This document shows positions 2,891 through 33,788 of a stretch of 64,000 nucleotides of DNA, in pieces. The position numbers and the translations under genes are program-made. A model generated the notes under the pieces. That model was given only the letters and a program-made list of their open reading frames with translations, was not told where the DNA came from and did not search any database. This DNA comes from Pseudomonadales bacterium (GTDB lineage: Bacteria > Pseudomonadota > Gammaproteobacteria > Pseudomonadales > JAUIET01): assembly GCA_045106985.1 (NCBI GenBank), contig JBGCFQ010000005.1, forward strand, positions 86,700 through 150,699, in the 5' to 3' direction. Numbering within the stretch: the first letter of the stretch is position 1; every line of letters begins with the position of its first letter.

Positions 2891-3012
2891 TACGGTACTT
2901 TTCCTTAGGAGCGTTGATACACGCACTTTACCTGATTGCGTAAAGCCGTGAATTACAACATCATGAGACTCATGAACACACTGTCAAAAAACTCGAAATC
3001 CATTCAGCGCGA

Positions 3013-3759: not shown

Positions 3760-4700
3760 CTGCCGGACTATTGGTTAAACATGCCACGCCACTGTGCCAG
3801 CTGCAGGATTTAGGGCGTATCGGTTACCGCGCGCAAGGAGTTACTCGCAGTGGCGCAATGGACCGCTTCAATTTGAAAGTAGCCAACGCGCTGGTTGCTA
3901 ACCCATTGAATACCGCCTGCCTTGAACTAACGCTCACAGGAGCCACATTCGAACTTACGGCCACCAGCGCCCGCATAGCCTTAGCCGGCGACTTCGATTT
4001 CAAAATTAATGGCATTGCAAAGGAAGTGTTCTGCAGCCATAGAATTGTTGAGGGTGATACGATTGAAATTGGCGCACCGCAAACAGGATTGCGCGCCTAC
4101 CTGGCGATTGCCGGCGGTTTCGATAGCTCACCGATACTCGGCAGCTGCGCGACACATACTCGTTCAAAATTGGGCGGCTTTGCACACGGTATAAACTTTG
4201 GCGAAACGCTGCCTATTAAAGCGCCCATCGCAGTAAGTGGTCATGAATGTAGTTTGCGACAAGGTTTGCGTCGCGGCCCTAAGGAAATTGTTCGAGTTGT
4301 TGCTGGCCCACAGCAAGAACATTTCTCCTCATCAGGTATAGAAAGCTTCTATACCTCGGCGTACAAGGTAACAGATGAATGCGACCGCATGGGCATTCGG
4401 CTGGATGGGGCACGAATAGAGCATGTGGGCGATGGCAATATTATTTCTGACCCGGTGATGCCAGGCAGCGTTCAAGTACCGGCCGGCGGCCAACCGATTA
4501 TTCTGATGGCCGATGGTCCCACTACTGGCGGCTACCCAAAAATAGCAACCGTTGCCAGCGTAGACTTAGCTGTTTTGGCCCAACTTGCCCCGGGAGCAGG
4601 GCTTCAATTCGAACAGATCAGCGTAGAAGAGAGCCAAACACTCGTGCGTGACGAAGCGCGCTTTTTCGCGAGCTTGCCACAGAGACTGGATCGTTTTTGA
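3756..4700 (+). CDS. pxpC: 5-oxoprolinase subunit PxpC (biotin-dependent carboxyltransferase family / KipA)
   Basis: QDLGRIGYRAQGVTRSGAMD, DRMGIRLDG and TTGGYPKIATV motifs. Translationally coupled to pxpB. Confidence 0.75.
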   Translation: MTAGLLVKHATPLCQLQDLGRIGYRAQGVTRSGAMDRFNLKVANALVANPLNTACLELTLTGATFELTATSARIALAGDFDFKINGIAKEVFCSHRIVEGDTIEIGAPQTGLRAYLAIAGGFDSSPILGSCATHTRSKLGGFAHGINFGETLPIKAPIAVSGHECSLRQGLRRGPKEIVRVVAGPQQEHFSSSGIESFYTSAYKVTDECDRMGIRLDGARIEHVGDGNIISDPVMPGSVQVPAGGQPIILMADGPTTGGYPKIATVASVDLAVLAQLAPGAGLQFEQISVEESQTLVRDEARFFASLPQRLDRF

Positions 4701-17504: not shown

Positions 17505-18917
17505 ATGGCCCTATCAGAAGCTACAAGCTCAGTTAATTTCTTTCTCGACGGTAACTTTGCGCCTGTCTCCGAGGAACGTGACGCGAGTGACATGGAAATT
17601 CGCGGGCGCATCCCTACGGACTTAGCAGGTCACTTCTTAAGGGTTGGGCCAAATCCAGTTCATATTTTTAGCGAACAGGCATACCACACCTTTGACGGTG
17701 ACGGCATGATTCACTCTATTGAGTTTCGCGATGGTTCAGCGCATTACCGCAATCGTTTTGTTCAAACCGAAGGTTTCAAGCTCGAACAGCAACGTGGAGA
17801 CTGGTTGTACAAGGGCATGAATTCGATGATGGACCCTACGCCTTCTCGAGTTCCTGAGGGTGCACCGGCCGATAAGAACCTAGCGAACACCGCTCTTGCC
17901 TTTCATAACAACACACTTTATGCGCTTCATGAGCCGTCGCAACCAACAATAATACAACTACCTGGGCTCGAAACCGAAGGAGCCACTGACTTCAACGGCA
18001 AACTGCAGCACCCGTTTACTGCCCACCCCAAAGTGGATCAACACAGCGGTGAGATGATGACTTTTGGTTATGCCTTTGAGGTACCCTACGTTAACTACTC
18101 GGTTATTGATGCTGCTGGCGAATTGATCCACTCCACGCCTATTACTATTGAGAAGCCAGTCTTCATGCACGACTTTGCCGCGACAGAGAAGTATTCTCTG
18201 TTTCTAGACTTCCCCATTACGCTCGACATAGAACGTGCAATGGCGGGCGGTCCCGCACTGGATTTTGAGCCGGAACACGGTTCGCGTATAGGAGTGATAC
18301 CTCGCTTAGGTACTGATGCCGAGGTGCGTTGGTTTGAAGTAGACACCTGCTCAGTAATTCATACCGCAAATGCTTGGGACGAAGATGACGAGGTTGTTTT
18401 GCAGGCTTCGCGCTCTAAAACCAGCGACATAGCGGGCGCAGGTTTGGCTGCAGAAAATCTGGCGGATACTCAAGGGCAACTCTACCAATGGCGCATTAAT
18501 TTGAAGACTGGAGCTATTAAAGAACAACTGTTAAGCGAGGTGCATTGTGATTTCACTCGAGTGAATGATGCCCTTACCTGTCATAAAACGCGTTACGTTT
18601 ATGGCGCTGTATTTAACCCAACACGCCCATTCACCTTTGATGGTGTGATGAAGTTTGATAACGAAACGCAAACCACAGTCACCTACAGTTACGGCGAAAA
18701 GCGGTTTGGAGGCGAGGTTGTGTTTGCGCCAAAGCTGGGTTCACAGACAGAAGACGATGGCTATCTCATCTGCTTTGTTCAAGACGAGGCCGAAAACCAA
18801 AGCGAATGTTTGATTCTGGATGCGCAGGATGTAGCCGCAGGACCAGTCGCGACAATTTTGGTACCTTACCGGGTGCCGTATGGCTTCCACGCCAGCTGGG
18901 TTGGTGACATGGGCTAG
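17505..18917 (+). CDS. carotenoid oxygenase family protein (carotenoid/stilbene cleavage dioxygenase, RPE65 family)
   Basis: GNFAPV, FDGDGMIH, HPKVD, MHDFAATEKY and GFHASW blocks, including the conserved iron-ligand histidines. Confidence 0.85.
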   Translation: MALSEATSSVNFFLDGNFAPVSEERDASDMEIRGRIPTDLAGHFLRVGPNPVHIFSEQAYHTFDGDGMIHSIEFRDGSAHYRNRFVQTEGFKLEQQRGDWLYKGMNSMMDPTPSRVPEGAPADKNLANTALAFHNNTLYALHEPSQPTIIQLPGLETEGATDFNGKLQHPFTAHPKVDQHSGEMMTFGYAFEVPYVNYSVIDAAGELIHSTPITIEKPVFMHDFAATEKYSLFLDFPITLDIERAMAGGPALDFEPEHGSRIGVIPRLGTDAEVRWFEVDTCSVIHTANAWDEDDEVVLQASRSKTSDIAGAGLAAENLADTQGQLYQWRINLKTGAIKEQLLSEVHCDFTRVNDALTCHKTRYVYGAVFNPTRPFTFDGVMKFDNETQTTVTYSYGEKRFGGEVVFAPKLGSQTEDDGYLICFVQDEAENQSECLILDAQDVAAGPVATILVPYRVPYGFHASWVGDMG

Positions 18918-19176: not shown

Positions 19177-19443
19177 ATGAAGAAGTCACGATATTCAGAG
19201 AGCCAGATTGTTAAGGCGCTGAAGGAAGTTGAAGGCGGTCGGAACGTCAAAGATATGTGCCGCGACTATGGTATATCAGAGGCGACTTACTACAACTGGA
19301 AAAGCAAATACGGTGGCATGGAAGCCTCCGATGTAAAGCGACTCAAAGAGCTCGAAGATGAGAATAGCCGCTTGAAGCAGATGTACGCAGAGCTGAGTTT
19401 GGACAACAGGGTTCTGAAGGATATTGTTGAAAAAAAGCTGTAG
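19177..19443 (+). CDS. IS3-family transposase OrfA (HTH)
   Basis: MKKSRYSESQIVKALKEVEGG...ISEATYYNWKSKYGGMEASDVKRLKELEDEN is typical of IS407-group OrfA. Confidence 0.9.
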   Translation: MKKSRYSESQIVKALKEVEGGRNVKDMCRDYGISEATYYNWKSKYGGMEASDVKRLKELEDENSRLKQMYAELSLDNRVLKDIVEKKL

Positions 19444-20276
19444 CGCCAGCGGTGCGGCGTGAGCTCCACGACCATGCCAGACAGGTTTTTGGTATGAGTC
19501 TCAGACGAGCCTGCCGCCTCGTTGGCATCAGTGACTCAGTGTACCGGTATACACCGAACGCGAATCGAGACGATGAAGTGATCGCGGGATTGCAGTCCGC
19601 TATTGAGCGGTATCCAGCGTATGGGTTTCCGAAGCTATTCAAGATACTCAGGCACTGGGGCCACTCCTGGAATCATATAAGAGTACACAGGGTGTATTGC
19701 GAGTTGAATCTGAATAAGCGAAGGCGAGGCAAGAAACGGCTGCCAATCACTCTGGAAATGCCAATAGCCATCAACCGCTGCTGGTCCATCGACTTCATGG
19801 GCGACAGTTTGTACTGCGGCAGGCGTTTTAGGACGTTCAATGTGGTCGATGATTTTGGTAGAGAAGTATTGGCGATAGAGATCGACATAGGCTTGCCTGC
19901 TGAAAGTGTTGTGCGGGTGCTCGAACGAATAGTCGCCTGGCGTGGCTATCCGAGCAAGATGAGGATGGACAATGGTCCGGAGCTAATCTCTACCACCTTG
20001 GCCGAATGGGCTTAAGATCACAGCATTGAACTTGAGTTTATTCAGCCAGGCAAGCCAACTCAGAACTCGTATGTGGAGAGATTCAACCGCACCTATCGAG
20101 ATGAAATACTGAACATGTACGTGTTCAAAACGCTCACAGAAGTGCGCGCAAGAACTGAAGAATGGATGAACGAATACAACGAGGAAAGACCTCATGATTC
20201 ACTTGGTGATCTAACTCCGTTGGAGTTCATGGTCGCCAGCAAACGGCCAGGCAACTCTAATTTAGCGTGCCACTAA
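19431..20276 (+). pseudogene. IS3-family transposase OrfB (DDE) with an in-frame TAA
   Basis: The -1 frame continues from the slippery site. The DDE domain is recognisable (WSIDFMGD, MRMDNGPEL, SYVERFNRTYRDE). A TAA at 20013-20015 (AEWA*DHSIELEFIQPGKP) falls between the second Asp and the catalytic Glu. Confidence 0.85.
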
Positions 20277-20398: not shown

Positions 20399-22558
20399 TT
20401 AACACCCTAGTCGTGCATTCTTAAGCTGGGTTACTCTACTTTTCTTCGCAAACAAGTCTGCGGGTTTACGAACAACTGGCATTCCCGTCCTTCTACTCCA
20501 TATGACTACCTTATCAGCAAGTGATAATAAGCTTGGATTGTGTGTCACAAAAATACAGGTGATTGGCATAGCTCGAAGTGCATTCATGATCTTTAGTTCG
20601 CTTTCCTTACCAACATGCGCGGTACCTTCATCCAAAAATAGAACCTTCGGTTGCTGGTATAAAGCTCGCGCCATTAGCACGCGTTGTTGCTGCCCAACCG
20701 ATAATGATGTACCCATATCAGTGACCAAAGTGTCAAACGACATCGGCATTCGCTCTATCTCATGCAGTATATCCGCCGCAATACAAACCTGCCGCACGCG
20801 CTTTATGTCGGGCGACAAATCGAAGAATGTTATGTTCTCCAACAAGGAGCCACTGAACAAAGTGTCCTCCTGCATTACTGCGGATATTTGCGCACGATAT
20901 GAACTCATCCCGAGCGATTTCAGATCCATCCCGTCAATCGATATCGATCCAGAACTAGGCTCAGATAAGCCCATAAGTACAGTGAGAAGCGATGTCTTAC
21001 CAGAGCCTGACGCTCCAAATATCGACACGAACTCACCGGCCTCGACGGTCAGGTTTAAGTCCGAGAATATGAGCGGATCGTTATTCGAGTATCTATAACT
21101 CAGGTCGCTAACTTCTATACTGCCTTCAATAGGTAGCAACAGTTTGGATTTACGGTCCGAACCTACTTCCTTCTCGGTTCGAGTGATGTCAGACAATCGC
21201 TCCAGGTGCAGCCCAATCATCAGGTATTCCAGCAATAGATCGACGATAGACGTAAATGACTTACTGAAATGAGCACGGTATGCTATGAATGCAAACAACA
21301 TACCTATTGTCATGCCGCCAGCGAGCACAATTTTGGCGCCTAGATACACAATCAAAATGTACTCGACTCCTTGCGTAACACCGTGCACTGATTCACGGGT
21401 GATATCGAGCCGTTCTACTTTAGCGCCTGTGTCTATAGCTCTAGAAAATTGATTCGCCCATACGGTTTGCCGATCCAACTCTTTGGCAGCCAATTTAACG
21501 CCTTGAACCGACCGAACGGTTTCTATAAAGGTGGACTCCACCTTCGCTTCCGCAACTAAATGTTCCATGTTTGCTGCACGGAGGCTCCTAAACTGAATTA
21601 TCCTGAACGCAGAGTATAGCAATGCCGCAATAATGACGACGGATGCTAGCTTGGCCGAATAGAAAAACATTAAGGCAATTGTTAGAAGAGCGAGCAATCC
21701 GTCGATGATTCCTGAGATGAACCCATTGGTCAGGAAATCCTGCAGTGGTTTGAGCGAACCGACTCTGGATATAAGGTCGCCAATGTGTCGCTTCTTAAAA
21801 TAATCCAGTGGCAGTCGCAGCAGGTGGTGCAACACGCTGTTGCCCATGTTGAAACTGAGCTGATTTGAAATAAACAGGTTGGCGTAGCTCCTAACGGCCG
21901 TCGTCAGTACATTGATGAGTGTTACCGCCAGAAATCCGAGGGCCAATATTGTTACTAGGTCCTTATCGTTCTTTGAAAGTACTTCATCCACGACAACCTG
22001 CATATAGAACGGCATGGAAAGTGCAAATATCTGTACTAGAACCGAAAGAACCAAGACAAGCACTAAAGAGGAACGAAGACCTGCAGTTTGCCCCCAGAAC
22101 GCCAGTAAGCTCAACTTCTTTGAATTATCTTCTTGGCGAAACTCTTTTCTGGGCGCGAGCTCTAGCGCTACACCAGTGAAATGTTTGCTGAAATCGTCCA
22201 AAGAATAGCGTCGAACCCCGACGGCAGGATCGTAAATTTCGATTTGATTAGAGCGAGCTTTCGACAGCACCACAAAATGATCGAAATCCCAGTGTATGAT
22301 TGCGGGCAACTTCAGTTGACCAATGGCCGTCAAGTCCACCTTTACGGGTCTGGCTGTTAAGCCAATGGACTCGGCCAAGCCCATGATTGAGCGCAGGTTG
22401 GCGCCACTGGAAGAGATACCCATGGTTCGTCGGGCATCAATCAAGTCATTGTGCTGGCCGTAATAACTGGCAACCATCAAGACGCAGGCGAGACCACATT
22501 CAGCGGCTTCACTTTGCATGCAAAGGTTGATTTTCCCCGTACGAGAACCATTTGCCAT
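20399..22558 (-). CDS. peptidase C39 domain-containing bacteriocin/microcin ABC exporter (CvaB/LagD type)
   Basis: The N-terminal C39 domain has an intact Gln/Cys (QSEAAECGLAC), His (HWDFDHFVVL) and Asp (IYDPA). Then a six-helix TMD, Walker A GASGSGKTS, signature LSVGQQQR and Walker B VLFLDEGTA. Its start overlaps the HlyD stop (TAATG). Confidence 0.92.
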   Translation of the reverse strand: MANGSRTGKINLCMQSEAAECGLACVLMVASYYGQHNDLIDARRTMGISSSGANLRSIMGLAESIGLTARPVKVDLTAIGQLKLPAIIHWDFDHFVVLSKARSNQIEIYDPAVGVRRYSLDDFSKHFTGVALELAPRKEFRQEDNSKKLSLLAFWGQTAGLRSSLVLVLVLSVLVQIFALSMPFYMQVVVDEVLSKNDKDLVTILALGFLAVTLINVLTTAVRSYANLFISNQLSFNMGNSVLHHLLRLPLDYFKKRHIGDLISRVGSLKPLQDFLTNGFISGIIDGLLALLTIALMFFYSAKLASVVIIAALLYSAFRIIQFRSLRAANMEHLVAEAKVESTFIETVRSVQGVKLAAKELDRQTVWANQFSRAIDTGAKVERLDITRESVHGVTQGVEYILIVYLGAKIVLAGGMTIGMLFAFIAYRAHFSKSFTSIVDLLLEYLMIGLHLERLSDITRTEKEVGSDRKSKLLLPIEGSIEVSDLSYRYSNNDPLIFSDLNLTVEAGEFVSIFGASGSGKTSLLTVLMGLSEPSSGSISIDGMDLKSLGMSSYRAQISAVMQEDTLFSGSLLENITFFDLSPDIKRVRQVCIAADILHEIERMPMSFDTLVTDMGTSLSVGQQQRVLMARALYQQPKVLFLDEGTAHVGKESELKIMNALRAMPITCIFVTHNPSLLSLADKVVIWSRRTGMPVVRKPADLFAKKSRVTQLKNARLGC

Positions 22559-23817
22559 TAGCTTGTTCTCCCGCGTAAGTTGTAGAAGGGCTCAAGCAAC
22601 CACTGCGCTAGACTGCGACTCTCGAGTATTATGTCAGCCTGAAAAGCCATACCCGAGCGCAATGACCTCTCGGTTCCTAACACAGACATGGTTTTGGCGC
22701 GCAGCTTAGCCTTCGCTACATAAACAGAACCCTGTACCTGCATTGGTGAAAGTAGATCGTTGCCTGTGATAGGTGCTTCGGAAATTGAGCTAATTTCGGC
22801 CGGGTGGGTACCAAACTGTTGGTGTGGAAATGCGTCGAATCGAACCCGAATAGTCTGGCCTACCTCTACAAAACCAATCGCGGAACTTGGCAGTAGTAGC
22901 ACGCCCTCTATATCAGAACCCACAGGCTCTATGGATACCAGTGGCTTGTTGACAGCTATTGATTGGCCTAATTCGTACTGCAGGCTTACGACACGACCAT
23001 CGACCGGCGCTACAATAAGCTCGTCCTGCCGGTTTATAGACTCGGTTATTCGGTTTGAAATATCAGACAAAGACGTTTCTATTTCCGCTATACCATTTGC
23101 CGTTCTGTCTGGTAGCTGAGCCAGTTGATAGCGAATCGTATTCTGTGATGATTGCAGCTGCAGAACACTCTGCCTGGCCTCGATGAGCGAGCGTTCCTGA
23201 TCCAGATGCTCCGCCTTCGACCGCAGCAATTCAGACTTTGCAATTGCTCCACTGCGTGCGAGTTTTTCTTTTGAGCGACGTAAATCGCTTAAAACTCCGA
23301 CACGTTGTTGTTGTTTGCGCTCGAGAGACTTCTGCAGCTCTATATTCTCCACAGTTTCAGCGAGTTGCTGCTCTAGCCGAACGTGCTCTCTTTCTTTGGC
23401 CACCCGATAACTCAACAGTCTCTGCCGCAGAGTATTTCGCTGCTTTTTCAGCGAGTTGAGTATCTCCTGAGATGCATCTTTGCCACCTGGGAGCAGCTCC
23501 GAATACGACACTATAGCGAGCGGTTGTCCGGCAACAACGTCTTGGCCATTTTCAACCATCATTTTGCGTACAATCGCGCCACTGCTTTTAGATCGTACTA
23601 CCACCAAGCCGGCGTCCGGGTTTAAGTAGCCTGTCACGGTCTGCTTTCGCGCATACTCGCCGGCCCAAAGAAAAATGCCAGCCACTAGAACAATACCAAC
23701 AATAAGAACTGTTAAATACGTTAGGCCAATAGGCTGAACCCTGGTTGTGTCGCCATAGAACTTCTGCGATGCGTATTGTAACGATTCCGCTCGAAATAGA
23801 TTGCTAACAACACTCAT
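22558..23817 (-). CDS. HlyD-family periplasmic adaptor (CvaA type)
   Basis: N-terminal FRAESLQYASQKFYGD, one TM helix, a long coiled coil, and beta-barrel and lipoyl-like segments. I prefer the start at 23817 (AAGGAGG 6 nt upstream); it forms an ATGA overlap with the upstream gene. The track ORF runs to 23868. Confidence 0.9.
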   Translation of the reverse strand: MSVVSNLFRAESLQYASQKFYGDTTRVQPIGLTYLTVLIVGIVLVAGIFLWAGEYARKQTVTGYLNPDAGLVVVRSKSSGAIVRKMMVENGQDVVAGQPLAIVSYSELLPGGKDASQEILNSLKKQRNTLRQRLLSYRVAKEREHVRLEQQLAETVENIELQKSLERKQQQRVGVLSDLRRSKEKLARSGAIAKSELLRSKAEHLDQERSLIEARQSVLQLQSSQNTIRYQLAQLPDRTANGIAEIETSLSDISNRITESINRQDELIVAPVDGRVVSLQYELGQSIAVNKPLVSIEPVGSDIEGVLLLPSSAIGFVEVGQTIRVRFDAFPHQQFGTHPAEISSISEAPITGNDLLSPMQVQGSVYVAKAKLRAKTMSVLGTERSLRSGMAFQADIILESRSLAQWLLEPFYNLRGRTS

Positions 23818-24641
23818 TGTGCGCCTCCTTCGTACAGCATTTCTGGCACTAAGGGCCAATTGTGCCATTCACTCGGGTAGAGCTTGAGATATCTACCAGC
23901 CGTGTCAATGAGGTCTCGCGCTACCGAATCAAAATAGTCCGCACTGTCTTTAGTGCCTCTTGGCCTTGCAAAACATTGTTGCAGTTCACACTGAATACCT
24001 GAGGGCGAAGATGTGGTGATAAATGGTACTAGCAGGGAATTAGTTATGGAAAAAGCCGTAATATGGGCCTTTACCCATCGAACTCTTCTATTGAGAAGGT
24101 CTGTTTCATAGTAGTCGTTTTGGTCTTTCGGTTGATCATAGAACATAACGACCATCGACTTATTCTGCAGCTCTTTACATACTTGCTGAAAGCTTCGCAA
24201 TCCATTCTGCTCAATGAGTACGACATTAAAAGGTAAGGATTGGATGCTTGTAAGTTGCTCTAGCTGCTTGTACCCCATGCTTTTTGGGTGCACAAGCACG
24301 ACACGCTCGCGTCTAAGCTGAATGGCTAATGCTGTAATAGCTGTGATGTAATCACCCATGTGTATTGTGGCGACGACAATGCCTGCGTCCCTTTTATCGA
24401 TGAATGCGCGCAAACGCTCTATGTCCTGAATTGGTAGCTCATTTGCCTTAAGAACAATGTCTTCCATATTTGCCTTTAGTGTGCTGTCCCAATGTTGATT
24501 AAGGGCTTCCATAGACATTTCCCGGTTTGAAGCGATAAGGTTTGCCATAGTAGGTGACTCTCGTAACATCCATTGCACGCAGTGGGATATCAACTCCTTG
24601 CCTTCGACTGCGCTTATCGCTTGAGAACTGGTGGTTTTCAT
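23814..24641 (-). CDS. divergent LpxL/HtrB-like (lysophospholipid/lipid A acyltransferase superfamily, PF03279-like) protein
   Basis: By-eye alignment to E. coli LpxL: GIVVATIHMGDYITA vs GILLVGIHFLTLELG (the HX4E region); SMVVMFYDQPKD...LVPFIT vs GEVVWYAPDHDY...LVPFVP; C-terminal YLKLYPSEWHNW vs MAPEQYMWLHRRF. No TM helix. The motif reads H-M-G-D-Y-I (consensus HxGNWE), so the catalytic acid is not canonical. Confidence 0.6.
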   Translation of the reverse strand: MKTTSSQAISAVEGKELISHCVQWMLRESPTMANLIASNREMSMEALNQHWDSTLKANMEDIVLKANELPIQDIERLRAFIDKRDAGIVVATIHMGDYITAITALAIQLRRERVVLVHPKSMGYKQLEQLTSIQSLPFNVVLIEQNGLRSFQQVCKELQNKSMVVMFYDQPKDQNDYYETDLLNRRVRWVKAHITAFSITNSLLVPFITTSSPSGIQCELQQCFARPRGTKDSADYFDSVARDLIDTAGRYLKLYPSEWHNWPLVPEMLYEGGAQ

Positions 24642-24775
24642 AATGGCTCTGGATTTGACTGCCTGTGCTTCAAGAGTGGGTTGCTACACCGACACTTACT
24701 TAATGTGTCTTTTTTAGAGCAAGTTTCTCGAGATAGGTCTCAACCTTCAAGTCGCTCGGAAAAGGAAGTCGTTCG

Positions 24776-24806
24776 AAAAAGTATGGAGCCAGGCAAGCCC
24801 AGCCCC
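24776..24806 (-). terminator. candidate intrinsic terminator/attenuator after the peptide gene
   Basis: The minus-strand RNA GGGGCUGGG-CUUG-CCUGGCUCC can form a 9-bp stem (three G-U pairs) with a tetraloop, followed by AUAC-UUUUU. It sits 44 nt after the peptide stop. The U-tract is not directly next to the stem. Confidence 0.3.
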
Positions 24807-24849
24807 ACACAACGTTTACTAATTTTTAGTGAAAAAATCAGTATCGACT

Positions 24850-25011
24850 TTAGTGGTGCTTACGTCTCCACCAGGAGAAAAAGCCTTTAGCTACTTTAAC
24901 GGCAACAACGGCTGCTGCTGCTTTAAATAGGAAAAAGCCGAAAAAGCCACCGCTTACAGCGTCGATTTCTTCTTCGGTCATCGCTTGGATGCCAGGGTTT
25001 TGATCAATCAT
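24850..25011 (-). CDS. double-glycine-leader bacteriocin/microcin-like precursor peptide (53 aa; not in the ORF track)
   Basis: Manual translation gives MIDQNPGIQAMTEEEIDAVSGG/FFGFFLFKAAAAVVAVKVAKGFFSWWRRKHH*. GAGG lies 7 nt upstream of the ATG. The leader fits the LSxxELxxIxGG consensus: G-1, G-2, V-4, I-7, E-8, M-12, I-15. It is first in the operon that ends with a C39-ABC exporter. Confidence 0.75.
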   Translation of the reverse strand: MIDQNPGIQAMTEEEIDAVSGGFFGFFLFKAAAAVVAVKVAKGFFSWWRRKHH

Positions 25012-25368
25012 AATTACACCTCTGTTTAGTTAAATAAATCAAAATTATGCCTCCTAACTATTTAGGCTGCGCAGTGATAGTACAATAAATAGCCAATGAA
25101 AAGACAGTGATGTTGCTACCGAGTATCGATAAAAAAGCCTATATATATAGCCTTTTTACGAAATTCGGTAGATATGAATCGTGAGGGAGAAGTATGGTTA
25201 GATTAGGGCGAAGTGATTACTGAAAGGCGAAGGAGTGTTGAATTAAAATTTACATTCCAATGGCTAAAAATAGACGAGTCAATTTTACAAATTTTCCGCG
25301 AAAAATTGAAATTGGGAAAAACTGTTTCTCATATTGCCCTATTGATGAAACTATTTTTTTTCACTAGT

Positions 25369-26301
25369 TCACTTCAGTCTTTGCACTGTAGAAATATGCG
25401 ACATAGGTTTTCTGTAGATCGAAGGCACTATGCCAACTCTGCTTCGAAAAAGTTCACTGAATCGAGATTGACTTTGATATCCGCATTGCAGCGCTATCTG
25501 ACCAATTGTCAGTTTTGTGTTGTCGAGCAAGTATAATGCGTGCTCTAGCCGAGCCTCATCCTTTATTTCCTGCAAACTTATACCTTCTTTGGCAAGTCTT
25601 CGCCGCATGGTCGACTTGCTCATTGAGAGTTTAGAGGACAGAATATCAACGTTGTTTTCTGCTGAGAAATTCTGGGAAATAATATTTTTCACGCTGTGCT
25701 TCAAAGAGCGTTCAAACATCAACCCTGGTATATCTTGGTAACCTTCTGCGCAAAGAAGGTCTATAACTTCTTTTCGACGATGTGAGTAATCGGCGCTGGG
25801 CGAGCGTGCGGCCCATTCTAAAAATTGTTTTAGGCACATGGCGAACCTGTCGCTAATTGCGCCTTGTACATGATTTAGCATCGAGCTCGAAACACCATAT
25901 TTCTCAGTGCAATCCCTATCCTCAAACTCTATTGCGATTACCATGTGTCTTTGCTCTTCGGTTTTTTCGATAATCTTGAACTCGGTTTTCCGTGGTAGAA
26001 AAAGAAAGCTCCCAGCGGAGCAGATAGTATGTTCTCCGTTATTTATGGAGCATTCGCCAATGAGTACAATAAGAAGTAGGGGTTTGCTGTGAATGGATTT
26101 CTTTTGCCGTATTGAATCGTTCGATGAATACAGGGAGATTGGCGAGCACTCTGTGATGCCGTCCAGTTCCTCAAACGAAGATATCAGGCTAGTTATCGCT
26201 GCGTTTGAATACTCCGATACGACTGGTTGTACTTCTGCTTCCGTCGGTTTCATGTATCTAAGCTTTTCAATTCTCATGTTTTTCGACCTTTCTTCCGCCA
26301 T
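25369..26301 (-). CDS. AraC family transcriptional regulator
   Basis: C-terminal double HTH (STMRRRLAKEGISLQEIKDEARLEHALYLL...IALQCGYQSQSRFSELFRSRVGIVPSIYR) with a cupin-like N-terminal domain. Confidence 0.88.
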   Translation of the reverse strand: MAEERSKNMRIEKLRYMKPTEAEVQPVVSEYSNAAITSLISSFEELDGITECSPISLYSSNDSIRQKKSIHSKPLLLIVLIGECSINNGEHTICSAGSFLFLPRKTEFKIIEKTEEQRHMVIAIEFEDRDCTEKYGVSSSMLNHVQGAISDRFAMCLKQFLEWAARSPSADYSHRRKEVIDLLCAEGYQDIPGLMFERSLKHSVKNIISQNFSAENNVDILSSKLSMSKSTMRRRLAKEGISLQEIKDEARLEHALYLLDNTKLTIGQIALQCGYQSQSRFSELFRSRVGIVPSIYRKPMSHISTVQRLK

Positions 26302-26402: not shown

Positions 26403-27260
26403 TCAGGACCTACCCAAAATTCGTCTTAATTGAGATTGCGCTCGCGTAAATCTAATCTTCGATGCGAATCTTCGGCGCTTTTCGAGTGGGCCGACCCGAA
26501 AAACAAAATGTGCACTACCAATTTGTATCTGATCCATGTCACCAAGATAGGACGACAGCTTTCTGACCCCGTTGACATATATTCCATTAGTAGAGACGAG
26601 ATTAACCATTTTCCATCGCCCTGCAGCGCTGATAAGCTGCGCATGCCGTGTCGATACTGTTTCGTCGTTTATAACTATGTTGCAGGCCTGATCACGCCCA
26701 AGTTCCCACACAGAAACCTTGGGAGCAGTGCTCATTTCCAAATCTATTTGAGACGTCACTGATTGCACACCTAGTCGTATCAAACGGGCAGTGTTCTTCT
26801 TTGGCGCTTGTAATTTATGAAGTGCGAGGTCTACTTCCAAGAAGGAATCAGCGAAGCTGTCGCAAAATACGGTCTCGCCAATACTATTGTGTTGCTTCCA
26901 GCAGCCTGGAATTTGATTGTCAGCCATTTGTGTAGGTAGTAGTGTGTATTCATGCGTTGCAAATCTAAGCACGTCACCTGGGTGCACTCGGCTCTTTGTC
27001 GTCACCGGCTTACCATTGAGGAAAGTAGAATTGCAGGATTTCATATCCTCTAACACTACCAGTCCTTTTCGACAGTACACGCGCGCATGCAAGCGAGAGA
27101 CTGCAGGATCTGCGATAATTAGATCGCAACTCGGTGCTCTACCTACAGAGAGAGTCGACGTTAGCTCGATCTTGAGTCCTTCGAAGTCTATAAGTTGATA
27201 CTCCTCTGTTTCTCTCGATTTGGCACTTACCTTCGAGCCAACTGATATAGGTTTATTCAC
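26403..27260 (-). CDS. protein with two FHA domains
   Basis: FHA1: VGRAPSCDLIIADPAVSRLHARV...STFLNGKPV. FHA2: LGRDQACNIVINDETVSTRHAQL...TNGIYVNGVR. Confidence 0.85.
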   Translation of the reverse strand: MNKPISVGSKVSAKSRETEEYQLIDFEGLKIELTSTLSVGRAPSCDLIIADPAVSRLHARVYCRKGLVVLEDMKSCNSTFLNGKPVTTKSRVHPGDVLRFATHEYTLLPTQMADNQIPGCWKQHNSIGETVFCDSFADSFLEVDLALHKLQAPKKNTARLIRLGVQSVTSQIDLEMSTAPKVSVWELGRDQACNIVINDETVSTRHAQLISAAGRWKMVNLVSTNGIYVNGVRKLSSYLGDMDQIQIGSAHFVFRVGPLEKRRRFASKIRFTRAQSQLRRILGRS

Positions 27261-27441
27261 GTTCTCTCCTTACTTAGTTACTTAAGGTTTCACTTAATGC
27301 GATCTGATGGAGATTCTTACTATTCAGAATAGTCAGTGTGAGCGGAAGTTTATAAAGACTATTGATTGTTACGCGCTTCAGGTTTTCGGTATTAGCCACC
27401 GGCTGCAGCGCTTTGACATTCTCATTAGTGTTTGGGTTACT

Positions 27442-29697
27442 TCAAGAGCTCGCGGCAGAGTTGCTTTCAAAGCTGCTTTCCGCTTCACGAAGCGAAGCCT
27501 GATCCTTGCCAGTCGATAGCATGCGTGACAATTCGAGTTCTCTAAATGTCCTGGCGTCATCGGCTTGCACTCCTTGTTCAACTTCGTTAATAAGGATGTT
27601 GCGTAGCTTTTGCAGTCTTCGGTTGCCCGGCATCAAACGTTGTCCACGAGACAAAAACACGTCGGCCTTATCAAGCGCACCGATTTTCATTTCAGTTTCC
27701 GCCAGTGCTGCGTACTCATTTCCTATTGCTTTAATGCCGTCCCATGCTTCCGCATTTAACGGGTCAATACTTAGGACCTGTTGATAGATTTTCTCCACAT
27801 TTTCTATAAGACTATCTTGCGTGCCACTGACGCCAGATATGAGTCGTGCTTCAGCTAGAAATCGCCTGATACGATCAGCTTGTTCGGCGTCCTTTTTCTT
27901 CTGGCGTGCAATCAATTGTTTTGTCGATTGCGGATTCTGGGTTTTCGCTGAATTAGTCGCTAATTGGCGGTCGCTTCTTTCAAGGTCGGCGATAAGTTTA
28001 TAGGTGCTTTTTCCTTCTGGATGCGTTAAGTCAACCTGGTATGCAATCGCTATCAGACTTCTCGCTTTTGCATAGTCCTTTACTATGGCCGCTTTTTGCG
28101 CTCTGTTGAGATACGAGCTGGCAACGGCTCGAATTCCGCCTAATGCCAACTTGTTTTCTGGATCAATTTGAAGCACCGCCTGGAATCGGCTAAATGCATC
28201 ATCTCCGTCCACAGTCTTGTATCGATTTTCTCGCATTGCTTTGTTAGCCTGCTCAATGCTGGTAGCTATTAGAGTCGCCTTTTCCTCCCGACGCGCTTGG
28301 TGTTGTTCGGTTTGGAACACCAATGCTCTTAGCTCTTGTTGTTGGCCCAGCAATTCAGCGTCATCTAGATAGAATGCTATTTGGGTAATGCGATCAAGCC
28401 CGGCACTGGCCGCTGCGCTGTCACCGGCGGTTATGTGCGCCTTTGACTCGGCCAGGTAATTTTCCAGCAAGTCACGAACTCCACTAATCGCTTCCTGATT
28501 CTGTGGGTCCCACGCAAGCGCAGTAGTAAAGAAGAATTGGGCATTGTCGTCGAGCGGCGAATGGAGCCGCTGATCAAGTAGCGCGGCCTTTCCTTGCTGT
28601 ACTAGATTGAATACGGTTTGATCTTTAACTGAACTTACCTTTGGTGTAACTTCAGCTGTAGGCGCATAGGATGCGTCATTGATCGCCCAGAGACCGCTTA
28701 CGATTGTTGCTCCGCACATAAAACCAAGAGCCACTTTGCCTGCTTGTGCCGCTGTTCGATATTTGACACCTTGTTTGCGTGATTCGCTATTTTTCGTTTT
28801 TCGCTCAATACCATCGTTAACCAGGCCTTTCTTTGGCCGGGTATAAAGCGTGCGGTCACTTGCGTTTGGATCTGAGTTTAAGCGATGCATATGGATTTCT
28901 AGCGCCCTGTCCAAAGCAACAATAAATGCCTCGCCACAGGAGAATCTGTCGTCCGCATTTTTTGCTAACGCTCTATCGATTACGGGTTGAAATGCCTCAA
29001 GATCTTCTCGCAGCGTGGGAATGCTAGAGAAAACGTGCTCATGGGCAATACCGATTGCTGAATCGGCTGTGTATGGAAGTCTTCCCTCGAGAAGCTCAAA
29101 CAATATAACGCCAAGACTGTAAATATCTGATCGACGCTCAAGTGGCTTGCCGCGAGCTTGCTCAGGACTCATGTATGCAGGCGTACCCAGTACCGACCCT
29201 GCGATAGTAATTTGAGTTCCGGCATTGGTTGGCCGCGCAATACCGAAATCACTAACCACCGCGCTGCCATTCTCGCTTAACAGTACGTTGGCTGGTTTTA
29301 TATCACGGTGAATAAATCCTTTTTCGGATGCATAGTGCAATGCTGATGCAACTTCTCTTACTATTGTTGCGCTGCGCTCAAGCGGCACAGGCGATTGCAT
29401 TAGGTTTTTGAGATCGCCACGATTGAGGTATTCCATGGCAATGTAGAGAGTACCGTTGTGTTGGCCTACGTCGTAGACAGAGACAATGTGGCGATGCGAT
29501 AACTTGGCGATAATTCTCGCCTCACGCACGAACCTGACAGCATAGGCTCTTTTGCTTGCGCCGGGATCCGAAATTATCTTCAGTGCAACCTGGCGCTGAA
29601 TTTTCTCTTGCATAGCCAAGTAGACCGTTGCTTGGCCGCCTCTACCGAGGACTTTCTCGATACGATAACCTGGCAAATTCGGGTATTGCATGTCCAA
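27442..29697 (-). CDS. Hanks-type serine/threonine protein kinase, membrane-anchored, with a TPR-like extracytoplasmic region
   Basis: GRGGQATVY, VALK, HRDIKPANVLL, DFGIAR and GTPAYMSPEQ. One TM helix (VALGFMCGATIVSGLWAI). About 400 aa of repeated helical TPR-like sequence follows. Confidence 0.9.
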   Translation of the reverse strand: MDMQYPNLPGYRIEKVLGRGGQATVYLAMQEKIQRQVALKIISDPGASKRAYAVRFVREARIIAKLSHRHIVSVYDVGQHNGTLYIAMEYLNRGDLKNLMQSPVPLERSATIVREVASALHYASEKGFIHRDIKPANVLLSENGSAVVSDFGIARPTNAGTQITIAGSVLGTPAYMSPEQARGKPLERRSDIYSLGVILFELLEGRLPYTADSAIGIAHEHVFSSIPTLREDLEAFQPVIDRALAKNADDRFSCGEAFIVALDRALEIHMHRLNSDPNASDRTLYTRPKKGLVNDGIERKTKNSESRKQGVKYRTAAQAGKVALGFMCGATIVSGLWAINDASYAPTAEVTPKVSSVKDQTVFNLVQQGKAALLDQRLHSPLDDNAQFFFTTALAWDPQNQEAISGVRDLLENYLAESKAHITAGDSAAASAGLDRITQIAFYLDDAELLGQQQELRALVFQTEQHQARREEKATLIATSIEQANKAMRENRYKTVDGDDAFSRFQAVLQIDPENKLALGGIRAVASSYLNRAQKAAIVKDYAKARSLIAIAYQVDLTHPEGKSTYKLIADLERSDRQLATNSAKTQNPQSTKQLIARQKKKDAEQADRIRRFLAEARLISGVSGTQDSLIENVEKIYQQVLSIDPLNAEAWDGIKAIGNEYAALAETEMKIGALDKADVFLSRGQRLMPGNRRLQKLRNILINEVEQGVQADDARTFRELELSRMLSTGKDQASLREAESSFESNSAASS

Positions 29698-30123: not shown

Positions 30124-30918
30124 ATGCGCTGCACCTTCTTTCGTTTCATTGATATACGAATAACTATGCGGGATAAGTTGATGGAACAAGACATCTTTCT
30201 GATCGTTGACGATAATGACGAGCTCCGGCAGGAAATGGTGAGCTATCTAAATCGTTATGGCGTTGTGTCTGTTGACGTTGATAGTGCAAAAGCTGCTAGA
30301 GAAGTTTTACTTTCTCAGCCAATTTCAATCGTCATTCTTGACGTGGTTATGCCGGGTGAATCCGGTTTGGATTTGACTAAATGGATCGTTCAGAACCTGG
30401 GCACGCCAGTTATTCTGCTTACATCACTAGATGATGTAACTGATCGAGTAACGGGATTAGAAGTAGGGGCGGACGACTATATACCAAAACCCTTTGATCA
30501 GCGTGAGCTATTAGCCAGAGCACGGTCTGTGCTACGTCGGGTAACCACCGATGAAGCTGACACAGCCAAGACTGCACCGAGTCCCAGTCTTTCTTTGTGC
30601 ACCGTTACGAGCCGACTTACGCTTCCGCATGGTGAGCAGACAAAGCTCAAAAGCCAAGAACTGAAAGTGCTGCGTTTCTTGTCAGACAACGCGGGTAAGG
30701 TGGTCACCAGGGAAATGCTGTATTCGCATGTCTACCAGCGACCGTGGAACCCCGATGATAGGGCCATCGATAACATCGTTGTGCAGCTGCGGAAGATAAT
30801 CGATTGTGATGACAGCACTGGAGACAGCAGGATAAAAACCGTACGCAATAAAGGGTATTTTCTGGATGTGGGCTTTATTGATTGCGCTCAAGGCACTGAA
30901 ATGCAGGCGGGACAATGA
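30124..30918 (+). CDS. OmpR-family response regulator (REC + winged helix)
   Basis: The REC domain (LIVDDNDEL...ILDVVMPG...DDYIPKPF) is followed by a trans_reg_C-like domain (IDNIVVQLRKI...IKTVRNKGYF). The real start is probably internal (ATG at 30166 or 30181). Confidence 0.85.
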   Translation: MRCTFFRFIDIRITMRDKLMEQDIFLIVDDNDELRQEMVSYLNRYGVVSVDVDSAKAAREVLLSQPISIVILDVVMPGESGLDLTKWIVQNLGTPVILLTSLDDVTDRVTGLEVGADDYIPKPFDQRELLARARSVLRRVTTDEADTAKTAPSPSLSLCTVTSRLTLPHGEQTKLKSQELKVLRFLSDNAGKVVTREMLYSHVYQRPWNPDDRAIDNIVVQLRKIIDCDDSTGDSRIKTVRNKGYFLDVGFIDCAQGTEMQAGQ

Positions 30919-30951
30919 CCAGCCGCTTTCAGCTTCACCGGAGGCGATGAC

Positions 30952-32244
30952 ATGGGCTTACTGAAGTTTTTGAACAAGAGAGCCAGAGAGGTTTATGGCC
31001 GCGAATCCCGTCGCTATATTTCAACCACGGGTGGTTATGTAAGACGAAGGCAGAGCATGGTTCATGTTAGTCAATTGAGCATTGGCATGTATGTTTCGGG
31101 TCTGGACAGGCCTTGGCTGGACACGCCCTTTTGTACGCAAGGCTTTTATGTTCGCTCTCAGGAAGACATTGACCAAATAAAACGTTATTGCGAGCGCGTC
31201 TATATAGACATAATACACAAGAAAGCAGTGTCGCTGGCTGATCCAACTCGCGAGAAAGAGATTGATGTTTCGATCCATAAATTACCAGACAAAAGCGCCT
31301 GGAATGGTGAGGAAAAGAGTTATCTTCGTTCTCAAGAACTTACCAGGTCTATATTGGACGAAGTCCGTTTACGCGGAATTATAAGAGAGGAATCAGTCAG
31401 AGACACAGTACGCACTTGCCTTGACAGTATTCTGCAGAATTCGCATACCTTATTGTGGGTATCGCAACTTGCTAAGCAGGGCAATAGTACCTTGGAGCGC
31501 CATGCTTTAAGTGTCTGTATCTTGGCTATTGCGTTCGGGCGATACCTTGGGCTTAGCAAAGAGGAGCTGGAGAAACTTGGCTCGAGCGCCATCTTGCATG
31601 ATGTAGGCATGCTTGCGCTAGATGAGGACGTTAGAGAGCGAATATATTCTGGCCAAGCTGAACTCAGCGATACTGATCGAACTGCCGTAAACGCGCATAC
31701 GGAACTGGGCCGAGATCTGTTGGTTTCCAATGATTGGCTGATGTCTGCTATCGACGTGGCTTACTGTCATCATGAGCACTTTGATGGTACGGGTTATCCT
31801 CGAGGGCTGCGGGGAGGGGCTATTCCAGAACTGGCACAGATTGTTGCACTTGCAGATACCTACGACGCTATAACCAATGCGCAAAGCTATCAATCGAACA
31901 AGTCGTCCCTTGATGCATTAAAGATCATCTATGACCAGCGCGACCAACAGTTCGACCCGAATCTGGCGCTCAGCTTTATTCGATTCATTACGATCTACCC
32001 ACCCGGTGCAATCGTTGAACTCAAAAACGAGCTCATTGGCATAGTGATTGATGCCACTAGCGGTCACAAACATTTGCCTACTATTATGTTGCTGCTCAAT
32101 GCAGATCGTTCTGCGCGCAAGCCGGAACTGATCTCGCTTGCTGAGAAATACAAGATGCCTGAAGGTCAAAACTACAGTATTGTCAAAATGTACCCTCCGG
32201 GTAGTTTCGATATAGATACGCGACTGTATTTAGATCCTTCCTAG
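30952..32244 (+). CDS. HD-GYP domain protein (putative c-di-GMP phosphodiesterase) with a DUF3391-like N-terminus
   Basis: HDVGM...HHEHFDGTGYPRGL signature. The N-terminal VHVSQLSIGMYVSGLDRPWLDTPF is typical of DUF3391. Confidence 0.85.
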   Translation: MGLLKFLNKRAREVYGRESRRYISTTGGYVRRRQSMVHVSQLSIGMYVSGLDRPWLDTPFCTQGFYVRSQEDIDQIKRYCERVYIDIIHKKAVSLADPTREKEIDVSIHKLPDKSAWNGEEKSYLRSQELTRSILDEVRLRGIIREESVRDTVRTCLDSILQNSHTLLWVSQLAKQGNSTLERHALSVCILAIAFGRYLGLSKEELEKLGSSAILHDVGMLALDEDVRERIYSGQAELSDTDRTAVNAHTELGRDLLVSNDWLMSAIDVAYCHHEHFDGTGYPRGLRGGAIPELAQIVALADTYDAITNAQSYQSNKSSLDALKIIYDQRDQQFDPNLALSFIRFITIYPPGAIVELKNELIGIVIDATSGHKHLPTIMLLLNADRSARKPELISLAEKYKMPEGQNYSIVKMYPPGSFDIDTRLYLDPS

Positions 32245-32276
32245 TTTAGCAAGCGAGTCTGTTTTTTAAATTCACT

Positions 32277-33788
32277 ATGAATATACCGTTGCTAAAAAAA
32301 AATGGGCGGGCGCCTAACCGCTTGTTGAGCACGCTGGCTAGAAGCTGGTATTTCGAAAGTTCTTATTTGCTGGTTGGTAGTTTGGTCTGGACTTTTGTTG
32401 TTTCCTTGTTGGTTTATGCCTGGGTCAGCCTAATTCCGAAAACGTATTTGCCTTTTCTCTTTCTACTCATTTTCGCTTCCGCAATAGTACTCAAATGGGT
32501 GTTGTACAGTCTCATTATCAGCCAATTCATTCGTTTTGATGAATACTTCCGGCTAGGCTTGGAACAAAGAGACATTACGAGCAGCCTACCTAACAAACCA
32601 GCTTATACTCTGCATCAATGGTACGACCTACTTGATCAGCTTCTGGATCGATTGTATCAGAACACGCATACCATCTCCGAAGTCGAAGATCGTTATCAAT
32701 CGATTCTGGATACGCAATCTGAGTTTGTCTTTAAGATCGACGAAAATCGATTCATGATTTATTCGAATCGCTCCTTCAATGATTTTATTTCTATGGGTAG
32801 TGACCAAAACGACAACTTTCTTGTTCTTGACTTTCTGGTTGACAACGTAGTTTCAGATATTATAAAGCAACAAGAAAAATTGTTAGAGTCGCTAAAAGAG
32901 GCTCCAGAAGGTATCGAATTTACTGTCAACTTGTTTTTAGCCGGTGAAGAACATATTGTTCGTTGGCATGCTATCTGTGTTCGAGAACACGTCAACGATT
33001 CTAATAGCGCCTGTAATTATGTGTTTGTAGGTCGAGACATCACTAATACATTGAAGCTGGAAGAGCGTGCCAGGAGACAGGAGAGCTTAGCCACTGTTGG
33101 GCAGTCTGCTTCATTTATCTGTCACGAAATCAGTCAGCCCTTGTCAGTCATAGAGTTGGCGACAAGGAATTTGATGGATTTGCGGCAAAGCAATTTATTG
33201 TCAGCCAATGACTTTGAGCAGAAGACCGCAACGGTACTGGCGAATGTGAGTCGTATCAGTAAAATTTCTCGCGAGCTCACTCACTTTGGGCGATATTCGA
33301 GCCAGGGCGACAGCGTATTTGATTTACATGAGCTGGTTTCTGATACTCTTGATGAAGGTAGAGATCTCAGTAGGCACGCTCGCATTAAAACGCCGCAACC
33401 TCAGTCTCAGCAATCGTTGCTTGTGAATGGAAATTCGACGCTGTTTAGACAAGTGATCTGCAATTTGCTAAAGAACTCTAGCTATGCGCTTGCAAAAAAT
33501 AAACCGGAAAACCCTGAGATCACCTTAGATGTTTGGCACGATACCTTAGGGGTTAACTTGCGAGTGAAAGATAACGCCGGTGGTGTCCCAACCCGGGATT
33601 TGGAAAAATTATTGATGCCTTTCTATTCCACAAAGCCGCCTGGAGAGGGCTCTGGGCTTGGCTTGGCTTTTTGCTTCGACGTAGTGCAGAAAATGGCTGG
33701 TTCCATAGAATGCAAAAACGACGAGCAGAAAGGTTTTTCAGTGCACATTACCCTACCACAACATCAGGCTGCGAATTCCGCGGCTTGA
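32277..33788 (+). CDS. sensor histidine kinase (2 TM helices, PAS-like, HisKA, HATPase_c)
   Basis: H-box FICHEISQPLSVI, N-box LLKNSSYAL, G-boxes DNAGGV and GSGLGLAF. Confidence 0.85.
   Translation: MNIPLLKKNGRAPNRLLSTLARSWYFESSYLLVGSLVWTFVVSLLVYAWVSLIPKTYLPFLFLLIFASAIVLKWVLYSLIISQFIRFDEYFRLGLEQRDITSSLPNKPAYTLHQWYDLLDQLLDRLYQNTHTISEVEDRYQSILDTQSEFVFKIDENRFMIYSNRSFNDFISMGSDQNDNFLVLDFLVDNVVSDIIKQQEKLLESLKEAPEGIEFTVNLFLAGEEHIVRWHAICVREHVNDSNSACNYVFVGRDITNTLKLEERARRQESLATVGQSASFICHEISQPLSVIELATRNLMDLRQSNLLSANDFEQKTATVLANVSRISKISRELTHFGRYSSQGDSVFDLHELVSDTLDEGRDLSRHARIKTPQPQSQQSLLVNGNSTLFRQVICNLLKNSSYALAKNKPENPEITLDVWHDTLGVNLRVKDNAGGVPTRDLEKLLMPFYSTKPPGEGSGLGLAFCFDVVQKMAGSIECKNDEQKGFSVHITLPQHQAANSAA

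Follow-up and report, generated by a model that had tools for sequence, protein, structure and literature searches.

What does a peptidase-containing ABC transporter export when its operon opens with a gene of only 53 codons, and why should an acyltransferase gene stand between the two? These questions are raised by a 64,000-nt stretch of DNA from a Pseudomonadales bacterium (assembly GCA_045106985.1, contig JBGCFQ010000005.1, positions 86,700 to 150,699 of the forward strand), which we call the window and in which an initial annotation, made from the letters and a list of open reading frames (ORFs), had proposed a small unannotated gene for a double-glycine (GG) leader peptide. On the minus strand, the operon runs in the order precursor peptide, hairpin, 275-aa acyltransferase, HlyD-type adaptor and C39-peptidase ABC exporter, the peptide gene being the first of four. 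A GG peptide beside a peptidase-containing ABC transporter (PCAT) is ordinary by itself, and the novelty lies in the partner enzyme, which belongs to a small, very divergent family of the PatA/LpxM fold, tied to a monophyletic clade of PCATs and their membrane fusion proteins (MFPs) and recurring beside GG-leader peptides. Taken as a whole, the locus is best explained by a double-glycine precursor that is cleaved and exported, probably after having been fatty-acylated, and we regard this explanation as reasonably likely.

A small gene for a double-glycine precursor

The ORF occupies positions 24850..25011 of the minus strand and translates in full to MIDQNPGIQAMTEEEIDAVSGGFFGFFLFKAAAAVVAVKVAKGFFSWWRRKHH*, its ATG being the sole start codon of the stop-to-stop segment; both the frame and the GAGG sequence upstream of it were present exactly as first described. 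The 22-aa leader has glycines at −2 and −1, hydrophobic residues at −4, −7, −12 and −15, an acidic residue near −8 to −10 and a length between 15 and 30 aa, as expected of double-glycine leaders, and the residues named in the initial annotation (G-1, G-2, V-4, I-7, E-8, M-12 and I-15) are all correct. The description of this leader as canonical is borne out by its homology to the leaders of related exporter loci and to that of a peptide encoded in one of them, L061, with which it shares 9 of 17 residues (pairwise E=1e-6). A strict regular expression mostly caught the ABC signature LSGGQ, and a hidden Markov model (HMM) was used instead, with 15 columns derived from 14 double-glycine leaders of other loci and with the window left out. 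When it was run against the 1,939 six-frame segments of the window, its sole match was the peptide ORF (E=3e-4), the next best segment scoring 4.7.

Codon usage was scored by log-likelihood, with 26 long ORFs from the window as the training set. The peptide ORF reached 0.267 bits/codon, compared with a mean of 0.232 (sd 0.10) for 53-codon windows of real genes and of −0.071 for 549 small non-coding stop-to-stop segments, 0.2% of which attain the value of the peptide ORF. The overlapping plus-strand ORF (24573..24890) scored 0.027 bits/codon and has no Pfam match, which fits the earlier view that it is probably spurious. Moreover, the 53-aa gene is called on L057, a 2.5-kb contig that comes from an unrelated sequencing run and matches the window with 100% identity over 2,546 nt. 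A sigma-70 scan found no minus-strand promoter 5′ of the peptide gene. A chance open frame that is never translated would agree with the shortness of the ORF, with the lack of any homologue of the peptide in an index of 5.8 billion proteins and with the neutral codon bias of the core half when taken alone (0.05 bits/codon), but it would be hard to reconcile with the leader HMM match, with a coding signal in the top 0.2% of small ORFs, with a Shine-Dalgarno sequence at 7 nt on the right strand and in the right position before a PCAT operon, and with the syntenic counterpart in L061. The last point was the test set beforehand in the initial annotation, conservation of the frame in syntenic loci, and L061 keeps a GG-leader ORF at the same position. 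We consider a chance frame very improbable, and are largely confident that the ORF is a real gene and a substrate of the PCAT. Every checkable element of the initial annotation was upheld.

The leader is anionic (net charge about −5.5) and offsets the core (about +6), leaving a precursor that is nearly neutral. The core has 31 aa, a mass of 3657 Da and a pI of 12, and a recount agrees with the composition first reported, that is, no Cys, 4 Lys, 2 Arg and 2 His; it also contains 7 Phe and 2 Trp. If the precursor is cut after Gly22, the computed masses of the two parts are 2305.5 and 3657.3 Da. Along the core, an aromatic cap is followed by an Ala/Val-rich hydrophobic helix and then by a Trp/Arg/Lys/His tail. 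It is hydrophobic yet not amphipathic, with a helical hydrophobic moment of 0.02–0.2 across most of the windows scored, and from its sequence it looks like a single membrane helix, aromatic-capped and with a positive tail. The peptide ends in KHH, and the L061 counterpart (L061:1206-1430, also found in L062) ends in the His/Gly-rich NHGGHGNHGGHHGYSH; such His-bearing tails could be used for metal binding or could provide a pH-dependent charge.

A divergent acyltransferase encoded between peptide and exporter

The gene that sits between the peptide and exporter genes had been passed over in the initial annotation. Its 275-aa product has no match in Pfam (E<=0.01) or in NCBIfam, retrieved only itself from the word index of 5.8 billion proteins, and had no relatives among genome representatives when these were scanned with the single protein. 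From 1.84 billion representatives, taken at the 50%-identity level and standing for about 15 billion proteins, an exhaustive HMMER search yielded a family of 68 such representatives at E<=1e-3, all <=30% identical. Searching the word index with the family profile returned 4 proteins only, and a pattern scan with the narrower family alignment A2 led to 4 metagenome loci, the wide alignment A1 being too diverse for a scan. Within the family alignment H94, G96, D169, W259 and W262 are invariant (H94 and D169 across 38 sequences), and the family is further marked by the motifs TIHMGDY, YDLP, GP, VPF and PxQWxHW and by a family-specific N-terminal LGESP.

The family profile matches PatA at E=1.5e-10 and LpxM weakly, and PF03279 is matched at E<=1 by 36 of 38 members, at best with 1.9e-11. 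As the window protein lacks the PF03279 match that these 36 relatives have, its membership holds at superfamily level only. An AlphaFold2 (AF2) model of the protein has a mean predicted local confidence (pLDDT) of 90.9 and a predicted template-modelling score (pTM) of 0.90, and Foldseek placed it with PatA at template-modelling (TM) scores of 0.72–0.79 (E=2e-12) and with LpxM at 0.68, the next unrelated fold following at E=3e-3. In the HMM alignment, H94 corresponds to the His of the PatA PHSGNW motif (PatA H126), whereas D169 lies one residue off PatA E200, beside a gap. The family does not have HX4D/E, since H94 is followed by M-G-D-Y-I (HMGDYI) and the +5 position is Ile or Leu throughout. 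In PatA, H126 acts as general base, with E200 as the charge-relay partner; HtrB, MsbB and PatA use the acid of block 3 and not the +5 Asp of HX4D, and the +5 Asp of PatA is non-catalytic (PMC4792965). On the strength of profile and modelled fold, we regard the 275-aa protein as a divergent PatA/LpxL-type acyltransferase that is probably active.

The window enzyme and another member of the family, P0017, are both paired with peptides that have an aromatic cap, an Ala/Val segment and a basic tail, and in both of them YDLP is changed to YDQP/FDEP and GP to KAH/KAY, a weak hint in the sequences that the acceptor loop may vary with peptide type. Covariation of enzyme loop and peptide was rejected for this pair as too weak: the loop identity of the two is 0.33, where the family averages 0.21, and other members tie with it.

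Enzyme, adaptor and exporter form a cassette

The C39 domain of the PCAT matches PF03412 at 1.5e-33 and aligns with LahT (6mpz) at 7e-21 and with PCAT1 and ComA. Compared with these three, its Cys (ECG), His (HFVV) and Asp (DP) motifs are kept, so the domain should be an active double-glycine peptidase. The PCAT start overlaps the HlyD stop as TAATG. The longest MFP ORF begins at 23868, but the likely start is its Met18, which overlaps the acyltransferase stop as ATGA, with GGAGG just 5′ of it; as read from these two overlaps, acyltransferase, MFP and PCAT are coupled in translation. The HlyD adaptor points to a Gram-negative producer.

Genomic context could be recovered for 12 other distinct loci of the enzyme family. 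An HlyD-type gene comes immediately after the enzyme gene, usually overlapping it, in 11 of the 12 (L043, L044/45, L046, L048, L049, L050/51, L052/53, L054, L055/56, L058/59 and L061/62), and a C39-ABC gene is next wherever the contig reaches; in the twelfth, L060, some gene overlaps the end of the enzyme gene. Against PCATs from 41 enzyme-free loci, where no relative of the enzyme is encoded, the window PCAT shows no more than 44% identity. The seven complete enzyme-linked PCATs group as one clade with a bootstrap of 200/200 when 34 PCATs are placed in a neighbour-joining tree. Together, the clade and the recurrent gene order indicate that enzyme, adaptor and PCAT are an old, co-inherited cassette.

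Two observations concern the setting of the cassette and the relatives of its exporter. In two metagenome-assembled genomes (L052:1-10200 and L058:1-10200) the cassette is placed right after a conserved recA-recX-alaS-lysC-csrA block. Eilatimonas milleporae (L025:4973-5349) falls within the sister group of the enzyme-linked PCAT clade; there, two tandem hydrophobic GG peptides are encoded between MFP and PCAT and there is no acyltransferase.

Peptides encoded beside the enzyme

A GG peptide adjoins the enzyme in four loci, namely the window, L061, L044 and L042. The closest parallel is L061, where the order is AraC-type regulator, 74-aa gene, hairpin, enzyme, MFP and PCAT, and where the PCAT is the one nearest to that of the window (57% identity over the 265 aa available). 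The 74-aa product, MQTMNATGIRPLSDTELDAVSGG-YVWWAVGVGAAVVGAAAVGVVVGAKLIKKWKNYRNNHGGHGNHGGHHGYSH, was the top match in that locus of a leader HMM on which it had not been trained (E=0.001), and its core repeats the design seen in the window, with an aromatic cap, an Ala/Val/Gly hydrophobic helix and a Trp/Lys/Arg/His tail. A different GG peptide (...RELTSREIDLVAGG-PAPLIAAGV...) is encoded in L044/45, with an insertion sequence (IS) fragment between peptide and enzyme. The L042 enzyme keeps the family motifs (hhalign E=2.6e-43), and its translation is coupled to that of a Gly-rich GG peptide of 105 aa, while no exporter is encoded close by; the enzyme thus tracks both the peptides and the exporter. 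In that locus (L042:7695-9647) the acyltransferase overlaps the start of the peptide gene, and the true enzyme ROF probably extends beyond the gene as called; the peptide is followed by a 155-aa protein whose N-terminus resembles a signal peptide, and the surrounding genes encode P450, TauD and short-chain dehydrogenase proteins.

The cores encoded beside the enzyme (the window/L061 type, L044 and L042) are mutually unrelated, whereas their leaders share EIDxV(S/A)GG. To judge from these sequences, a shared leader with unlike cores is more in keeping with an enzyme guided by the leader than with an immunity protein specific to one core.

A truncated small ORF in L043 with an A/V-rich segment and a basic tail was considered as a homologue of the window core and rejected, because it consists of a GGCGGT-type repeat, is frame-ambiguous and is not evidence of homology. 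This ORF (L043:1-230) lies 5′ of the closest homologue of the enzyme; another frame gives a Gly/Ser-rich tail like the C-termini of class IIb microcins, and a hairpin with a T-run follows it. Other GG-leader peptides were met beside related exporters. In Janthinobacterium (L002-L008 and L035, at about 2600-4500 in each), tandem tiny GG-leader peptides are encoded 5′ of HlyD-PCAT genes, with conserved cores of ~14 aa, (N/L)MPE(A/S)SVGG(N/S)(S/T)DW(N/G), which are unusually short and have a second internal GG. In Bryobacterales (L009:8082-8327, L012:2284-2490 and L023:2082-2276), GG-leader peptides with Cys-rich cores (e.g. ...HGSAGTCCGCGYDDVCY) stand beside related PCATs and may give rise to disulfide- or thioether-containing products.

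Operon organization and genomic surroundings

The features of the operon and of its edges are collected in Table 1.

Table 1. Positions of the peptide operon, its parts and the adjoining elements within the window
Feature	Position	Strand	Basis
AraC-family transcriptional regulator	25369..26301	-	PF12833/PF00165
Shine-Dalgarno GAGG	25019..25022	-	7 nt before ATG, from sequence
Leader-coding part, 22 codons, MIDQNPGIQAMTEEEIDAVSGG	24946..25011	-	Leader HMM, sequence
Core-coding part, 31 codons + stop, FFGFFLFKAAAAVVAVKVAKGFFSWWRRKHH	24850..24945	-	Sequence; L061 peptide of same design
13-bp G+C-rich hairpin + T-run, between peptide and acyltransferase genes	24771..24810	-	RNA folding
275-aa divergent PatA/LpxL-type (LPLAT superfamily) acyltransferase; predicted catalytic His94, Asp169	23814..24641	-	Profile, fold
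HlyD-type membrane fusion protein (MFP)	22558..23817	-	PF13437/PF16576, TIGR01843
719-aa PCAT: C39 + transmembrane domain + ATPase	20399..22558	-	PF03412, PF00664, PF00005
Degenerate IS3-family element at operon edge, outside the system	19177..20276	+	HTH_Tnp_1, rve, C-terminal transposase fragment

The hairpin folds as RNA with −33.1 kcal/mol (z = −5.3), and none of 200 shuffles was equally stable. A hairpin after the small ORF is found in L061 and L043 as well, and its form suggests a terminator- or attenuator-like element; Rfam gave nothing significant on the intergenic regions. The AraC-type regulator encoded 5′ of the peptide gene is probably pathway-specific, a role suggested by AraC-type genes that also flank the related cassettes in L061 and L046.

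No small (<=216 aa) transmembrane immunity ORF was found between or beside the operon genes, whose neighbours are the acyltransferase, AraC and IS3 remnants, and the only small ORFs near the peptide encode no membrane proteins and share their DNA with real genes or with the IS remnant. In the window, IS3-family remnants border the PCAT gene at its end, and in L044 it is an rve_3 IS fragment (L044:6777-7328) that lies between GG peptide and acyltransferase; the cassette seems to be located in mobile or rearranged DNA.

Directly 5′ of the AraC gene, on the minus strand (26403-29697), are genes for a double-FHA-domain protein, also present on the identical contig L057, and for a Ser/Thr protein kinase with TPR repeats, and these two may feed regulatory input to the peptide operon. 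The locus is flanked on one side by an RPE65-type carotenoid oxygenase gene (17505-18917, plus strand) and on the other by genes for a response regulator, an HD-GYP-type phosphodiesterase (HD_5 + DUF3391) and a histidine kinase (30124-33788, plus strand).

Proposed mechanism and alternative explanations

From the genes we infer regulation, cleavage, export, acylation and membrane activity alike, along the following lines. The AraC-type regulator probably drives transcription of the operon, and the hairpin after the precursor gene would let precursor mRNA exceed the mRNA for enzyme and exporter. The anionic leader would keep the cationic hydrophobic core inert and harmless in the cytoplasm and would guide the precursor to the C39 domain. 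The acyltransferase, with His94 as base and Asp169 as relay in the manner of PatA, would move a fatty acyl group from acyl-CoA or acyl-ACP onto the core, the candidate acceptors being a Lys side chain near the end of the helix or Ser46, the single Ser. The C39 domain would then bind the leader and cut after Gly22, and PCAT, adaptor and an outer-membrane channel encoded elsewhere would expel the 31-aa product. Once released, the mature peptide may insert into target membranes by means of its aromatic cap, Ala/Val helix and Trp/Arg/Lys/His tail.

The conserved acyltransferase gene means that the product may be modified rather than plain. A tailoring function is the norm for enzymes whose genes stand between those of precursor and exporter. 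Acylation of the peptide is favoured by this gene position, by the varied cores with a shared leader and by the coupling in L042 to a peptide alone, and to judge by gene linkage, acting on the peptide before export is the likeliest single role of the acyltransferase, one that we hold tentatively and rate as plausible rather than probable. A wider claim, to which we give slightly less credence, is that there is an unrecognised class of ribosomal lipopeptides in which an LPLAT-type enzyme coupled to PCAT and MFP acylates GG-leader peptides before export, by a miniature hemolysin-type logic; the window and L061 peptides would be one product type of such a class.

Several points weigh against acylation of the peptide. 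It is deduced purely from gene linkage, and to our knowledge every PatA/LpxL-type enzyme characterised so far acylates lipids or glycolipids, and none of them peptides. The window enzyme is under every Pfam threshold and lacks the family GP and YDLP motifs, and a recognisable leader-binding (RRE-type) domain is absent. The known fatty-acyltransferases of peptides made on ribosomes and modified after translation (RiPPs) are GNATs (PMC13647313). No GG-leader ORF was found in the flanks of the well-covered loci L046, L048, L052 and L058, so that the peptide is not an obligatory neighbour; in L052 and L058 the substrate is encoded elsewhere or absent. A codon-level test of selection is impossible for the peptide, as there is no divergent ortholog of the core and the sole second copy, on L057, is 100% identical. 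Finally, since no immunity gene was found, an immunity role is left for the acyltransferase.

This last point leads to the alternative in which the PCAT exports the peptide without modification, as a small bacteriocin or microcin-like toxin, and the acyltransferase protects the producer, making its envelope more resistant through acylation of lipid A or of a phospholipid or glycolipid in the membrane. Extra acylation of lipid A raises resistance to cationic peptides, and the closest structural relatives of the enzyme, PatA and LpxM, act on glycolipids and lipid A; moreover, the enzyme gene directly follows the toxin gene, which is the usual position of an immunity gene, and no conventional small transmembrane immunity gene flanks the peptide, where validated microcin immunity genes are adjacent, at most 216 aa long and membrane-located (PMC12219008). 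A specific immunity protein would not, however, be expected to accompany cores as unlike as a Gly-rich one of 90 aa and an acidic-tailed one, nor to stay coupled to the MFP and PCAT genes in loci where no peptide is detected; the enzyme has co-diverged with the exporter, and its model lacks the N-terminal transmembrane anchor typical of LpxL. Self-protection appears to us rather unlikely, although it is the strongest of the alternatives. It is improbable, in our judgement, that the peptide is exported unmodified while the enzyme serves the exporter otherwise, through another cargo or a lipid co-substrate, the adjacency of the peptide being incidental: the conserved unit is indeed acyltransferase-MFP-PCAT, with a precursor adjacent in four loci and one frame-ambiguous case only, but the L042 enzyme is coupled directly to a GG peptide in the absence of an exporter, the window and L061 have the same peptide type, regulator type and gene order, and a C39 domain with its active-site motifs implies a GG-leader cargo.

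A further question, which is independent of the role of the acyltransferase, is whether the mature peptide is a signal (pheromone) or a membrane-anchored effector of the producer itself and not an antimicrobial. Elsewhere the GG-leader cargo of PCATs includes quorum-sensing pheromones (PMC7018657, PMC7595303), and in the window regulators lie directly 5′ (AraC, the FHA protein and the Ser/Thr kinase) and the core resembles a single transmembrane helix with a positive tail more than an amphipathic helix. A cognate sensor kinase paired with the peptide gene is missing, though, and a charge of +6 with aromatic, Trp-rich ends is typical of membrane-active peptides, so a signal or effector seems to us as improbable as an incidental adjacency.

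If acylation of the peptide is true, ribosomal lipopeptide biosynthesis, for which we know of only GNATs and the lipoprotein pathway, would gain a further enzyme superfamily, and the system would provide both a compact, genetically encodable lipidation tool and a new family of cationic lipopeptide antimicrobials of very short length. Should the envelope of the producer be what the enzyme remodels, it would represent a new kind of bacteriocin immunity.

Comparison with known systems

In a full-text literature search, no paper was found to link GG-leader peptides or PCATs to an enzyme of the PF03279, LpxL or PatA type; the nearest mention was of a HlyC-type 'toxin-activating lysine-acyltransferase' near Serratia microcins (PMC13101503). 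The system can be set beside five known ones. Class II microcins exported by CvaA/CvaB-type systems, such as microcin V, share with it the N-terminal GG signal, the C39-ABC exporter with an HlyD-type adaptor and a locus without an outer-membrane channel gene (PMC12219008), and the PCAT and MFP genes for type I export that define such loci are present in the window. The window core is smaller, as the initial annotation had remarked, with 3.66 kDa against ~5-10 kDa (PMC12219008). It also lacks the Ser-rich C-terminus of class IIb microcins, there is no counterpart of the adjacent small transmembrane immunity gene of class II, and in the window the gene of an acyltransferase separates the peptide gene from those of the exporter. 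The lactobin A/cerein 7B family (TIGR03949), a class II group of Gram-positive bacteria, is alike in having a short, cationic, hydrophobic and Cys-free core behind a GG leader, but TIGR03949 scores the window peptide at 12.8 bits (E=0.074), short of its curated cutoff of 21.5, and the window differs by an HlyD-type adaptor and by the lack of a partner peptide and an immunity gene.

With the fatty-acylated RiPPs, that is, the selidamides (kamptornamide, phaeornamide, nostolysamides), lipolanthines, goadvionins and lipoavitides, the locus has in common the Gly-Gly leader junction and an adjacent acyltransferase (PMC13647313). Selidamide-type RiPPs depend on the GNAT superfamily (PMC13647313), whereas the window enzyme has the PatA/LpxM (LPLAT) fold; they carry the acyl group, whereas a lipidated product is proposed for the window from the genes alone; and lanthionine, arginase or other tailoring genes are absent from the window locus.

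The enzyme itself is closest to PatA, the mycobacterial phosphatidylinositol-mannoside acyltransferase, and to LpxL/LpxM of lipid A synthesis (PF03279), in fold (TM 0.68-0.79), in the catalytic His and, with D169 aligned one residue off E200, in what may be the acidic relay residue of block 3. It is only ~12-15% identical to them, has no acid at +5 and carries the extra N-terminal LGESP, and while their context is the biosynthesis of lipid A or phosphatidylinositol mannosides, its own is a peptide exporter.

In its logic, the operon recalls the RTX operons (hlyCABD), which likewise bring together a toxin gene, an activating acyltransferase, an ABC exporter and an HlyD adaptor. The parts differ: HlyC (PF02794) has an unrelated fold, and neither PF02794 nor RTX is matched in the window system; HlyA is large, with RTX repeats and a C-terminal signal, whereas the window peptide has 53 aa and an N-terminal leader; and the C39-like domain of HlyB is inactive, whereas the window PCAT keeps its catalytic Cys and His.

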